A stretch of DNA of 64,000 nucleotides from Eledone cirrhosa (taxonomy: Eukaryota), in NCBI GenBank assembly GCA_964016885.1, contig OZ024761.1:29884001-29948000 (forward strand). The letters run 5' to 3'. Below are positions 20,140 to 32,092 of this stretch, in pieces. Each line of letters opens with the position of its first letter. Within the stretch, counting starts at the first letter, position 1. Made by a program: the position numbers and the translations under genes. Below the pieces are notes generated by a model that worked only from the letters and a program-made list of their open reading frames with translations, was not told where the DNA came from and searched no databases.

Positions 20140-20607
20140 AAAGTTATATTTAAAATTGTTGGGTTACAACTAGTAAATATTTATAACTGATATAAAAGCA
20201 CTCGACAAATACTTGGAGTATATTTACAATATTAAATAAATGGAAAACTATATTTATAAAACCATATTTATTTCATTATATATATTTCGGGGATATCATA
20301 TTAACAATATGCTATGCCTTCATCAGACAAAATACAATATAAACAGTTTTATAGATAAATATATTCGACATACCGTAATAAACATCAACTTCATTTGAAG
20401 AGGTTCACTCTAGCAGTGCTAGAGTGAACCTCTTCAAATGAAGTTGATGTTTATTACGGTATGTCGAATATATTTATCTATAAAACTGTTTATATTGTAT
20501 TTTGTCTGATGAAGGCATAGCATATTGTTAATATGATATCCCCGAAATATATATAATGAAATAAATATGGTTTTATAAATATAGTTTTCCATTTATTTAA
20601 TATTGTA
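20140..20607. mobile_element. Fold-back element with two hammerhead-like cores (probable Penelope-like pseudo-LTR derivative), copy 1, in COQ5 intron 1
   Basis: Perfect palindrome 20225-20607 (191-bp arms, 1-nt centre at 20416) plus an unpaired tail 20140-20224; flanked by (TA)n; CTGATGA at 20506 and GAAA at 20544, mirrored on the minus strand. Confidence 0.8.
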
Positions 20608-20682
20608 TATATATATATATATATATGCATGTGAATGGCTTTATAGTTAAGATGTTCAGCTCATGGCAGTGATTTCAAATCA

Positions 20683-20855
20683 CCTGTCATCACACCTCCA
20701 ATATCAGTGTTTAAATTCTCTATCTCATCTGTCATCACACCTCCGGTAATGGTGTGTCATCTATCTCAACTGTCATCACACCTCCGGTAATGGTGTATCA
20801 TCTATCTCAACTGTCATCACACCTCCAGTATTGGTGTATCACCTATCTCACCTGT
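20683..20855. repeat. 39-bp tandem repeat abutting the COQ5 exon 2 acceptor
   Basis: CTGTCATCACACCTCC...TCTATCTCA repeated four times. Confidence 0.85.
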
Positions 20856-20872
20856 CCCATTCTCAATTTCAG

Positions 20873-21022
20873 TCCACGAGGTATTCAAGAATGTTGCCAG
20901 TAAATATGACTTAATGAATGATGCCATGAGTGTTGGTGTTCACCGTCTATGGAAGGACTATTTCATAAGACAACTGGCTCCAACATCCAACACCAAACTT
21001 GTTGATGTAGCCGGAGGAACTG
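20873..21022 (+). CDS. COQ5: COQ5 exon 2
   Basis: [29 protein letters not shown]...LVDVAGGTG (UbiE/COQ5 signature and SAM-binding motif I); canonical AG/GT. Confidence 0.97.
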
Positions 21023-22018
21023 GTAAGTATGTCTGATACTTTAAAATATTTAACAGGATTTGTTGGGGTGTGGGGATGGAAGATTATTTGTTGTTTTTCT
21101 TTTTAATGTATACCTGCACTTTTATCCTTTTTTTTTTTTTTCTTCTTTTTGAAAATATAAACACTTTTGTTCTATTGCTTGTCATCTGATAATTGACTTG
21201 ATCTGAGACTGTGTGTTTAAACTAAAACAGTATTACTGACTGGCTAAAATTCTTCTTCTACAATATAATAGTGACTGAGTGGTTAGAGAATAGGATTCAC
21301 AATTGTGAGGTTGTGATTTCGATTCCTGACCAGGATTTGCGTTATGTCCTTGAGCAAGATGCTTTATTTCACGTTGCTCCTTCTGCCTGGACTTGCAACT
21401 GACAGATGGTATTAGCAATTGGAAAGACCAACGGAAACATTGTTTCCTCGGTCAGATTTGACGAGTTCCACCCCACTCGTTAAGTGAATGAGGTTTGGGA
21501 TTTTGTCAACCGACTGTCGATATATATATATATATATATATTCTTCGCCCACTTAATCATGGGAGTAATGTAAATGCTAATATTATGTAAGAACCTTTTT
21601 TAAGTTATGCCCCAATCCCCAACTTAACCCTTTAACATTTACATTATTCTCTATATACTATTGTATTTTCACGGTAAAGGCTTTATCTTACGTAATTATC
21701 TCACATAATATCAAATCTACAAGATTTTGATGTTATTGGTTTGAACAGAAAGAGGGGAAAGAATTCTGGCCGGGTATGGCCATTTAAATGCTAAAGGGAG
21801 TACAAGACTCTCCCCCGGACAAGAAGACAGTCCATCACAGAGTTAACTCCCAGTTGCCGTCACTGGTATTCATTTCCAGTTGAGTAAACTGGAGCGACAT
21901 GGTATAAAGTATTTAGCTCTAGAATACATTACACAACTCATTCCAGAACTTGAACCCACACTATTACAATCTTAAGTTCAACATTGTAACCGCTACATGA
22001 TTTTCCTTCTACTTTCAG

Positions 22019-22252
22019 GAGATATTGCGTTCAGATTTCTGAATTACATCCAGCACTTGGAAGCAGATCTGTCTAACGATATTGAAAAATTTGGCCCATT
22101 AATGAACGATGAGTTTGTCCCTGTCAGCGACCAACCTGAGGCTGTGGAAGACATTAACCAGGATTGCTCAGCTCACGTAACTGTGTGTGATATCAACCAA
22201 TCTATGTTAAATGTTGGTCAAAAACGGAGTAAACTGGCTGGATATAACACAG
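22019..22252 (+). CDS. COQ5: COQ5 exon 3
   Basis: GDIAFRFL...VTVCDINQSML; 234 nt, phase 1-1. Confidence 0.95.
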
Positions 22253-29264: not shown

Positions 29265-29707
29265 TACGATATTAAATAAATGGAAACTATATTTATAAAA
29301 CCATATTTATTTCATTATATATATTTCAGGGATATCATATTAACAATATGTTATGCCTTCTTCAGACAAAATACAATATAGACAGTTTTATAGATAAATA
29401 GATTTGACATACCGTTCAACATCGACTTGTATTTGAAAAATCAACTTTTTCAAATACAAGTCGATGTTGAACGGTATGTCAAATCTATTTATCTATAAAA
29501 CTGTTTATATTGTATTTTGTCTGAGGAAGGCATAGCATATTGTTAATATGATATCCCTGAAATATATATAATGAAATAAATATGGTTTTATAAATATAGT
29601 TTCCATTTATTTAATATCGTAAATATACTCCAAATACTTGTTGAGTGCTTTTATATCAGTTATAAATATTTACTAGTTGTAACCCAACAATTTAAATATA
29701 ACTTTCC
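29265..29707. mobile_element. Fold-back hammerhead-bearing element, copy 2
   Basis: 176-bp arms (29265-29621, loop TCAAC, 3 mismatches seen) plus tail; (TA)n flanks; CTGAGGA at 29521, GAAA at 29559. Confidence 0.8.
29517..29571 (+). ncRNA. Minimal type I hammerhead ribozyme-like motif
   Basis: TTG-T-CTGAGGA-[AGGCATAGCATATT gtt AATATGATATCCCT]-GAAA-TATATA-TAA: intact core, long stem II, palindromic minimal stem III, 3-bp stem I with one extra U. Equivalent motifs at 20502-20556 and 31902-31956. Confidence 0.6.
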
Positions 29708-30423
29708 ATATATATATATATATATATATTTACAAAAACACGTTGATGGGTGTTCCATCTATTTCTACGATGACCATCTAGTTGCTCAATCAAGCGGACA
29801 TCGAAGCCATGAATTTATGCATACGTGGTTGAATATTCCATTGTCCCGTGTACAGTAAGCCATAATTTCCTACGATTGCAGAATAAGGGGTCGATAAAAG
29901 AAGTACTATGCTTATGTTCTGGACTCGATATATTTGACTAAAGAGTTCCAGTATGGCCGTAAACTATCGACTAACCAGCAAGAAATTATCAGAAATCAAA
30001 CTTGGATTAAATATATATATTTTTTTAAAGGCCAGAAAACAAAACTACCACCTCGCAGTCTTAGCGCTGGCTAGGAGTTGAACTCAAAACAAATAGAATC
30101 ATTTTTATTAATGTGGTAAAAAAAAAAAACAGAAGTCAAATTCTGATTAATTAAATTAATTTTAAAAGGTGAAAAATAATAATAAAAACAATGTATGCGT
30201 CAGCCCGAAGTCGAACTCGTATCAAATAATTTAATTTAGGTTTAAAAAAAAAAGCGAAAAATATTACAACGGAAGTGTGGAATGGACGATGAACTCAGAT
30301 CAAATTAATTTATTTAAATAAATGTAGGCACAAAAAAAAACCAGATGGATGCTTCGATTGAGAAACGAAACCTAATTCGATTTATATTTAGTTTAAAAAA
30401 AAAAAGCAAAAGAAACCAATGGA

Positions 30424-30495
30424 TGCGTCGGCCGGGAGTCGAACCCGGATCGACTGCTTGGAAGGCAACCATGCTAACCGTTACACCACCGACGC
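30424..30495 (-). tRNA. tRNA-Gly (anticodon TCC)
   Basis: Reverse complement GCGTCGGTGGTGTAACGGTTAGCATGGTTGCCTTCCAAGCAGTCGATCCGGGTTCGACTCCCGGCCGACGCA: 72 nt, full cloverleaf, A and B boxes, oligo-T terminator downstream (A run at about 30396-30405 on +). Confidence 0.96.
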
Positions 30496-31099
30496 CTCGC
30501 TGATAATAGATGAGAATTTACTGTATACATTTTGAAATACAAGTAGCCATGCTATATTTTTTGCTGTGTTTAGCTGTTTAGTATATTTAAAGCGATTTTA
30601 TTTCCTCGTAACTGTCTTTAATAATATATATATCATTTAAAGGAGGTTTTACATAAATACGTTTTTTTTTTAAATGGAAAAAAAAGAAGGTCGAATCTTC
30701 TTTTATGCTGCAAATAAAATAAAATAAAAAAAATGTGTAAATAATTCGGAGGTGTTTGGCTCGTGTCAACAATTTTTGTCTGGAAAACAATGTGGCTTAT
30801 TTTGTTTGCTGGATTCTAAAAGTCTGTCTGGAGATGGTGGCGTTCACCAGGCCGGTGTTTATCCTATATTTCCGTAGCGTAAAATGCCTGAGAATTCAAG
30901 ACTTCTCCTATGGACAGGACGACAGTCGATCGTAGGGTTAAACCGACCTCTCGAACCACCACTACTACTATTACTACTACAGCCCCCAACTACTGCAACA
31001 TCCACCACAACCACCATGACCACCACCACTCCCACTATTACTACTACGACTACGACAATAACCTATGAAATCTGTCTCGGAATATACATACTAACAATT

Positions 31100-31585
31100 G
31101 GCAAATGGTGACGAAACCATAGTCAAGGGGAGGTAATCTATGTTGTATGTATGAGTGAATGTATGGTGTGTGACAGTTGGTAAGCGCGTGCGAGTTGGTG
31201 TCGTCTGGCTGTTACCCGTATATATATGTATATTGATATTTTTTAATCGCGTTTTAATATATTGTAATCTTTACAAAATAAAATCAAAGCTATTCAGCGT
31301 TGTGTGTATATATATATCCAGTAATAATAATAAATTTGAAGACTAAAATTTTTATAAATATATATATATATATATATATTTGGCAAATGGTGACGAAAAC
31401 ATAGTCAAGGGGAGGTAATCTATGTTGTATGTATGGGTGAATGTATGGTGTGTGACAGTTGGTAAGCGCGTGCGAGGTGGTGTCTTCTGGATGTTACCAG
31501 TATATATATGTATATTGATATTTTTTAATCGCGTTTTAATATATTGTAATCTTTACAAAATCAAATCAAAGCTATTCAGCGTTGT
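31100..31585. repeat. Direct duplication of about 205 bp
   Basis: GGCAAATGGTGACGAAA...GCTATTCAGCGTTGTGTGT at about 31100-31308 and 31382-31590. Confidence 0.85.
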
Positions 31586-31624
31586 GTGTGTGTGTGTGTA
31601 TATATATATATATATATATATATA

Positions 31625-32092
31625 TACGATATTAAATAAATGGAAACTATATTTATAAAACCATATTTATTTCATTATATATATTTCAGGGATATCATAT
31701 TAACAATATGCTATGCCTTCCTCAGACAAAATACAATATAGACAGTTTTATAGATAAATAGATTTGACATACCGTTCAACATCGACTTGTATTTGAAAAG
31801 TTGATTTGGCAAATCAACTTTTCAAATCAACTTTTCAAATACAAGTCGATGTTGAACGGTATGTCAAATCTATTTATCTATAAAACTGTCTATATTGTAT
31901 TTTGTCTGAGGAAGGCATAGCATATTGTTAATATGATATCCCTGAAATATATATAATGAAATAAATATGGTTTTATAAATATAGTTTCCATTTATTTAAT
32001 ATCGTAAATATACTCCAAATACTTGTTGAGTGCTTTTATATCAGTTATAAATATTTACTAGTTGTAACCCAACAATTTAAATATAACTTTCC
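31625..32092. mobile_element. Fold-back hammerhead-bearing element, copy 3
   Basis: Arms 31625-32006 with a short tandem duplication at the centre, plus tail; (TA)n flanks; CTGAGGA at 31906, GAAA at 31944. Confidence 0.8.

Follow-up and report, generated by a model that had tools for sequence, protein, structure and literature searches.

How does a retroelement come to end in its own mirror image? The question is raised by a stretch of 64,000 nucleotides from Eledone cirrhosa (assembly GCA_964016885.1, contig OZ024761.1, positions 29,884,001 to 29,948,000 of the forward strand; this whole stretch is called the window and positions are counted from its first letter), which carries three head-to-head palindromes with a predicted hammerhead ribozyme in every arm (family A, copies c1, c2 and c3). 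By comparison with described elements, these palindromes are very probably the 3' ends, that is a pseudo-long terminal repeat (pLTR) with a predicted type I minimal hammerhead and a tail, of 5'-truncated Penelope-like element (PLE) insertions in (TA)n. The origin of the tandem and inverted structures of PLEs is named as an unsolved task in PMC8557442. For the locus as a whole we consider, with moderate confidence, that the best explanation is PLE 3' ends in (TA)n with a mirror image made by two priming events.

The palindromes have arms of 191, 176 and 184 bp, a one-sided tail of 86-87 bp and TA tracts on both sides. c1 starts with the 87 bp tail (20138-20224, minus strand, on one side only), followed by the tail-bearing arm, the pLTR part (20225-20415, minus strand; hammerhead 20261-20341, core C3 at 20326), a centre of 1 nucleotide and the tailless inverted arm (20417-20607, plus strand; hammerhead 20491-20571, core C3 at 20506, predicted cut after 20555), which has the same 191 bp as its partner, is identical to it and runs into (TA)n. 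c2 starts with the tailless inverted arm (29265-29440, minus strand; hammerhead 29300-29380), which has three differences from its 176 bp partner (29446-29621); the partner and a spacer of 5 nucleotides, oriented as the tail-bearing arm, occupy 29441-29621 (plus strand; hammerhead 29506-29586, predicted cut after 29570) and are followed by an 86 bp tail (29622-29707, plus strand) identical to that of c3. c3 consists of a 184 bp tailless inverted arm (31625-31808, minus strand; hammerhead 31660-31740), a centre of 14 nucleotides, made of one base and a 13 nucleotide tandem duplication on the tail side, the tail-bearing arm (31823-32006; centre and arm together 31809-32006, plus strand; hammerhead 31891-31971, core 31906-31912, predicted cut after 31955), a fixed boundary at 32006/32007 and an 86 bp tail (32007-32092, plus strand). 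A preliminary description made from the sequence letters had listed the three copies with inverted arms, one-sided tail and (TA)n flanks, and had noted that the inverted arms share an end and that the centres differ; all of this was borne out. All tailless arms stop at one shared alignment column and then enter (TA)n, and the centres of c1, c2 and c3 are positioned 80, 83 and 90 nucleotides upstream of the hammerhead core.

Over 178 shared alignment columns, the two arms differ at 0, 3 and 0 positions in c1, c2 and c3, respectively, and c1 is separated from c2 and c3 by 14-16 substitutions and three gap columns (~9%): the arm identity within copies that the preliminary description proposed to compare with that between copies is thus complete in c1 and c3, and incomplete in c2. 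BLAST with each copy finds three family A copies in the window, and beyond the flanking TA tracts of each lies unique DNA. c2 and c3 are separate recent insertions, because their tails are identical but their flanks and centres differ. Different centres and unique flanks also support the proposal that the second arm is made anew at each insertion.

The preliminary count of three elements was incomplete: the window contains three related hammerhead families, with element B (~32788-33080) and element C (17760-17849) as further hammerhead-bearing elements outside family A. Element B has, between (TA)n tracts, a tail of ~93 bp (32788-32880, minus strand), a short tail-bearing inverted arm of 39 bp (32881-32919, minus strand), which has no hammerhead and one mismatch to 33042-33080, and a long tailless hammerhead arm of 161 bp (32920-33080, plus strand; hammerhead 32959-33040, core C3 at 32974) that runs out into (TA)n close to the homologous counterpart of the family A boundary. 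Its tail is homologous to the family A tail (score 49 versus a shuffle mean of 26.6; 3 of 2000 shuffles were as high), and the element begins 54 nucleotides upstream of its core. As 122 nucleotides are found only in the tailless arm and ~93 only in the tail arm, the arms of element B, as they stand, are not fold-back copies of each other. Element C (plus strand) is a solo hammerhead with core C3 at 17775, a 39 nucleotide stem II and a 3 bp helix III, which continues into (TA)n; no inverted arm of it was seen. All four inverted elements (c1-c3 and B) contain a head-to-head inverted 5'-truncated copy and have the tail (86-93 bp) at one end only, and all five elements have (TA)n at their 3' side, in a window where TA runs of at least 10 nucleotides make up 3288 of 64000 bases. 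Directly after element B begins a repeat of ~200 bp (33100-33300) with several copies in the window.

Family A is high-copy. Part of the arm is contained in 12 of the 16 listed public sequencing runs, in five of them with half the words or more; among these 16, no RNA run contains it. Alignments to 31808-32100 comprise 34788 of 12467656 records of run X14, 4565 contigs of X1, 87 matches in X5 and three in X7; X14 is restriction-site-associated DNA sequencing (RAD-seq) and X1 gives contig depth, so neither measures copy number, and X5 has another organism label. The tailless end is joined to (TA)n family-wide: 5344 X14 reads depart at 32012 into a TA run, a T stands at 32007 in 15368 of 16085 and in 826 of 986 X14 reads (from ~201 starts), and the fixed end into TA is visible in X1 and X5 contigs too. 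Depth is greatest over the 3' half of the hammerhead; further families share this segment, because the loose ends before 31943 differ in their stem II sequences. In X1 the depth drops ~150-fold from 31898 to 31818; in X14, 1595 reads, which may come from few loci, extend upstream of 31823 with common sequence (median 81 letters). BLAST identified no direct tandem pLTR in the window, and X14 has only few joints that go back, two small ones with six reads each. An opposite-strand joint at 31993/32012 in other copies (21 X14 reads) suggests a tail-to-tail junction, and one at 31891/31943 (one X1 contig) suggests another lopsided head-to-head junction. On the sense strand, places with A>G exceed those with T>C (22 versus 8 in X14, p 0.006; 12 versus 5 in X1, p 0.09; 7 versus 3 in X5, p 0.21); the excess could reflect A-to-I editing of the template RNA, but the changes are unpolarised and X14 is dominated by few loci.

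The hammerhead core that had been reported for each arm is present in 6/6 arms of family A, and the conserved core CUGANGA / GAAA / UH is found in all eight motifs when B and C are included. Family A arms have the order helix I (8 uninterrupted pairs, or 14 with one bulge), core, 31 nucleotide stem II, GAA, 8 nucleotide self-complementary helix III and A at position 17. Seven matches (the six A arms and B; 0.00 expected from 100 shuffles) were obtained with a pattern derived from the elements of the window themselves. A structure descriptor has five (four family A arms and B), whereas 100 block shuffles gave 0.02 on average and 5000 shuffles of a single arm gave none; its strict stem II rule causes it to miss both arms of c1. 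A covariance model from A and B has 38 matches at E values up to 5, of which the top seven are the motifs used for training together with their twins; element C (23.1 bits, E 0.009), from outside the training set, is the highest-ranking independent match in the same sense. The hammerhead search that the preliminary description had recommended was thus positive with the descriptor and negative with Rfam: no hammerhead family is among the 150 Rfam matches listed, of 300, for the window, and neither of the two Rfam matches on the c2 arm is to a hammerhead family. A relaxed descriptor also matched at 55318, but this match has a variant core and a T-rich spacer, was discarded on visual inspection and does not recur among the covariance-model matches. 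A scan of viral sequences returned nine loci, including one near-identical match, which were all read by eye and rejected as chance; the two scored with the covariance model reached ~13 bits (E 0.7) with a broken helix I. Two pattern scans of metagenomes for the hammerhead elements gave 0 matches.

Between families A and B, 93.8% of 80 cells are paired (slid controls: 32-64%), a count that compares two independent lineages with a structure drawn from those same families. The expected covariation of stem II is present: four of nine helix II pairs are changed on both sides and two on one side, two pairs of helix I are changed on one side, and a C.C mismatch at helix II position 4 is kept in A and B. 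Among the best-supported 40 of 108 read variants, 13 lie within the ribozyme, where they affect 11 places, and the sole core place that varies is N7; the other ribozyme variants are mostly at the mismatch pair, in the loop region or at wobble-tolerant places, two are at paired stem II places, and some close a G.A mismatch or swap wobble and Watson-Crick pairs. The variation of the hammerhead is thus structure-preserving, and the comparison supports, with the modest power of two lineages, that the structure is kept under selection. Helix III is 8 nucleotides long and self-complementary in A (dimer -3.2 kcal/mol), a wobble variant of this in B, and 3 bp and non-palindromic in C. If c1 is read through, its RNA is predicted to enclose the core in a perfect duplex of 191 bp (-297 kcal/mol).

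The element type is already known, and so are its architecture and its opposite-strand hammerhead pairs; the novelty that the preliminary description had seen in the arrangement was overstated. Typical of PLEs are a 5'-truncated copy in inverted orientation, a one-sided tail of 30-40 bp and a bias to microsatellites (PMC8557442), the architecture with inverted copy, tail and (TA)n being described also in PMC3846280, PMC2377424 and PMC8969392, and pairs of minimal hammerheads at distances of 100-700 bp, one on each strand, were reported in 2014 (PMC4209133). For Octopus vulgaris, 31 PLE families with recent activity are listed (PMC13282606 Table 1); no publication on octopus hammerheads was among those listed by a literature search. 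With the endonuclease-containing (EN+) PLEs Penelope/Poseidon, Neptune, Nematis and Hydra (PMC8557442, PMC3846280, PMC2377424), the window elements share the head-to-head 5'-truncated copy, the one-sided tail, the pLTR hammerhead, the AT-rich or (TA)n targets and the lack of a discernible target site duplication; they differ in that no open reading frame (ORF) was seen, in the tail length (86-93 versus 30-40 bp) and in an insert that is only pLTR and inverted pLTR. With the PLE minimal hammerheads of Cervera and de la Pena 2014 (PMC4209133) they share the intact core, a long helix II, a short palindromic helix III, compensatory changes and opposite-strand pairs (here with 156-181 bp between cores), whereas helix II is longer (~12 bp with the kept C.C mismatch in A and B), helix I has at least 8 bp and there is no Rfam match. 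Anolis Poseidon PAc (Frangieh et al. 2024, PMC11167929) likewise has two fixed ends bounding a tail downstream of the hammerhead and AT-rich targets; its ORF starts at stem II, whereas ATGs in or just after the family A hammerhead reach stops within few codons. Animal non-LTR retrozymes (PMC7229834; bioRxiv 10.64898/2026.07.22.740005) are also short, non-coding, AT-rich and probably PLE-dependent and have a type I hammerhead, but they are head-to-tail tandems giving circular RNA; every window element is either head-to-head, with a tail, or solo, and we therefore do not count them among the retrozymes. The resemblance in working to a PLE end is strong, from which we infer membership of the PLEs at large, and the earlier reading of PLE-type ends with a type I minimal hammerhead, inserted recently and targeted to (TA)n, is thus supported. 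The preliminary description took the element to be non-autonomous, but an autonomous PLE may have left the window elements as its 5'-truncated ends.

Several observations weigh against a PLE end with a working hammerhead. No PLE ORF could be linked to the elements: a crude motif scan found no PLE-type reverse transcriptase (RT) or GIY-YIG motif in a coding context in the window, and the two metagenome scans gave 0 matches. The tails are longer than the published ones. Monomers fold no stabler than shuffles (z +0.53, +0.75, -0.53 and -0.47), and the best fold of family A is not a hammerhead and is 1.4-4.2 kcal/mol lower. The extra nucleotide after A9 and the G10.1-C11.1 pair that are conserved in PLE minimal hammerheads (PMC4209133) are possible only in c1, while c2, c3, B and C have purine-U (A-U or G.U); a T>C allele at 31943 (20% of X1 depth) would also permit the pair. 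The lack of a PLE ORF would be expected for truncated ends. The earlier statement that the window has no RT or GIY-YIG ORF holds for PLE-type motifs and needs correction for RT in general: a broken RVT_1 fragment (Pfam match) lies at 33902-34276 on the minus strand, which we take to be LINE-type from its motifs. The poor monomer folds fit the low activity that was reported for PLE minimal hammerheads (PMC4209133). The predicted hammerhead probably has little activity as a monomer, and a tandem partner or a protein would be required; the mirrored hammerheads cannot dimerise with each other, because they are on opposite strands.

Given a PLE origin, we lean towards twin priming as the main route to the mirror image. 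A PLE RT/GIY-YIG protein encoded elsewhere would bind the RNA and nick both strands of a TA tract. One target end would prime cDNA at a distal start site, at the end of the tail, and the other target end would prime at a proximal start site ~86 nucleotides upstream, the fixed end; the c3 tail region (32007-32092) would thus be located between two start sites of reverse transcription. The two cDNAs would extend towards each other on opposite strands and would be joined by their 3' ends at 0-3 nucleotides of inverted microhomology. If both stopped at about the same place, a near-perfect palindrome would result (c1-c3), and if one stopped early, a lopsided element (B); identical arms would derive from one RNA or one source locus, and different arms, as in c2, from two RNAs. 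The more specific proposal, that inverted PLE pLTRs are made by twin priming at two fixed RT start sites that bound the tail, sometimes on two RNAs, and that the family is a natural record of this, we make tentatively, as slightly short of probable.

The steps have precedents. In experiments with purified Poseidon protein, a predicted dimer, both target strands were nicked and extended, AT-rich DNA was preferred and reverse transcription started at two sites bounding the tail, and hammerhead cleavage was not required in vitro (PMC11167929). A literature search, with figures, supplements, Repbase, Dfam and subscription papers outside it, found no twin-priming model for PLEs. For L1, twin priming was reportedly described by Ostertag and Kazazian in 2001, with two target ends priming two cDNAs that are joined as an inversion, a geometry that element B shares; in L1 the second site is said to be variable with little duplication, whereas in the window elements the two sites seem to be fixed and the overlap of the arms is nearly complete.

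We favour twin priming because the fixed end joins the target, because the c2 arms differ at family-polymorphic sites and because each arm of element B holds unique sequence; it accounts for the fixed end as a priming site, for the one-sided tail, for element B and for c2. The three c2 differences are homologous to 31890, 31910 (N7) and 31920 (the G.A mismatch) and are common family alleles (89%, 15% and 21% of X1 depth, respectively); the chance of such a match is ~0.002-0.01 if C>T/G>A changes fell at random on 42 G/C sites, a rough and after-the-fact probability based on the best 40 of 108 read variants. Two of the three are at ribozyme-neutral places. Equal depth (81.6) in X5 suggests that both G>A alleles of these sites are linked, and the differences suggest that the c2 arms came from two templates.

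The strongest competitor, which we consider less probable as the source of the second arm, also assumes a PLE origin: a tail-end-primed cDNA or an antisense RNA would fold back at a micro-palindrome, copy itself and stop at the fixed site, and the product would then be joined to the other target end, a scheme close to that of Arkhipova et al. 2013 (PMC3846280). Several points speak for it or against twin priming. The arms of c1 and c3 are identical over all 178 columns with 1-nucleotide centres, that of c1 at a micro-palindrome, as fold-back predicts and explains more simply, and the c2 spacer has the orientation of the tail arm with ~2 nucleotides of microhomology (read by eye), as fold-back of a cDNA 3' end gives. 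Long palindromes are known to lose internal sequence, and it is possible that element B is a symmetric palindrome after a later loss of 122 nucleotides. The c2 differences could be three plus-strand C>T changes relative to c3, or gene conversion; the evidence on mechanism comes from n=4 elements; and self-priming is the published interpretation of such junctions (PMC3846280 Discussion). Yet fold-back calls for a special cause of the family-wide stop, which is joined to (TA)n and falls 86 nucleotides short of the end, and against it also stand the different family alleles in the c2 arms, the c3 duplication confined to one arm and an element B whose tailless arm extends 122 nucleotides further 5' than its supposed template arm. 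Fold-back had been the source of the second arm in the preliminary description, where it now appears doubtful; the copy-specific variants cited for it do occur in both arms of c1, which are identical, but this fits either model. Twin priming and fold-back may both occur.

A different alternative addresses the template and fits both proposed ways of joining: the family could be a short non-autonomous SINE- or retrozyme-like element (SINE: short interspersed nuclear element), with an RNA 5' end 80-90 nucleotides upstream of the core and mobilised by a PLE in trans, or the insertions could be solo-pLTR 'strong-stop' cDNAs from a pLTR promoter. The centres, at 80, 83 and 90 nucleotides upstream of the core, hint at a preferred template 5' end, as does the ~150-fold depth drop in X1, which is however also explicable by subfamily divergence or by loss of hairpin fragments in short-read libraries. 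PLE promoters are located in the pLTR (PMC2377424), and non-autonomous PLE derivatives are known (bioRxiv 10.64898/2026.07.22.740005; PMC8557442). Against a short template stand the 1595 X14 reads that continue upstream of 31823, with the caveat of few loci, the start of element B at 54 nucleotides upstream of its core, the single X1 contig joined at 31891/31943 and the absence of head-to-tail tandems as in retrozymes. We regard a short template as possible and less than probable.

A fold-back or miniature inverted-repeat (MITE-type) DNA transposon that duplicates TA and has a chance hammerhead-like motif is very improbable: long inverted repeats and TA flanks would fit, but the termini are not inverted repeats of each other, one being an unpaired tail, which largely refutes it and leaves the terminal inverted repeats looked for as a hallmark unseen, and in addition the elements vary in their centres, B and C show that tailless, solo and lopsided forms occur, and the RNA structure covaries. 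Least probable of all is that the assembly or the library turned a linear repeat into palindromes: the centres of c1-c3 do rest on the assembly, because no raw read spanning any of the three was seen, and long perfect palindromes are a known class of artefact, but the flanks are unmirrored, the tail is one-sided, the c2 arms differ, the c3 duplication is one-sided, element B repeats the geometry with 39 bp arms, the fixed end into (TA)n is seen in raw reads and the architecture is published.

c1 lies entirely within intron 1 of COQ5, between the exons 18647-18820 and ~20815-21024. Proteins of the window match octopods (Argonauta hians 63%; Octopus vulgaris COQ5 71%). COQ5 (18647-26908, plus strand, seven exon matches) shares the window with a dynein light chain gene (42543-42818, minus strand) and an SR-protein-like gene (60072-63465, plus strand, by eye); COQ5, DYNLL1 and SRSF9 are also neighbours on human chromosome 12q24, and this would be ancient microsynteny. 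An uncharacterised gene with exons at 4053-9680 contains an open frame of 198 codons (5503-6099, plus strand) without Pfam match, and a tRNA gene (30424-30495, minus strand; Rfam 62.5 bits; anticodon TCC (Gly) by eye) lies between c2 and c3. Just left of c3 is a near-tandem duplication of ~240 bp (31086-31330 and 31361-31600, by eye) with a TA tract in between. Broken fragments of non-LTR retrotransposons are found at 33902-35036 (minus strand, RVT_1 match), 14689-15315 (plus strand) and 39426-39779 (plus strand), of which the latter two, without Pfam match, are presumably C-termini of long interspersed nuclear elements (LINEs), judged by their motifs. A short interspersed repeat has 21 copies across 11933-61536 and is presumably an octopus SINE family. 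The window further contains a separate perfect palindrome without hammerhead (52241-52318; 34 bp arms, 10 nucleotide spacer), very long degenerate (TA/TG)n arrays at ~350-1700 and 46430-47080 and minisatellites at 13510-14232, 25824-26543 and 28306-28992.

To a specialist the finding itself is unsurprising, and the value of the family is that of a test set for the question of the PLE mechanism: its short, young and numerous copies make twin priming versus fold-back directly testable via arm haplotypes and junction asymmetry. If the twin-priming reading is true, the mechanism question could be settled from a genome alone. For the host, c1 places its predicted perfect RNA duplex of 191 bp in intron 1 of COQ5, and a large number of insertions of this kind might supply substrates for A-to-I editing or for small-RNA pathways in cephalopods.

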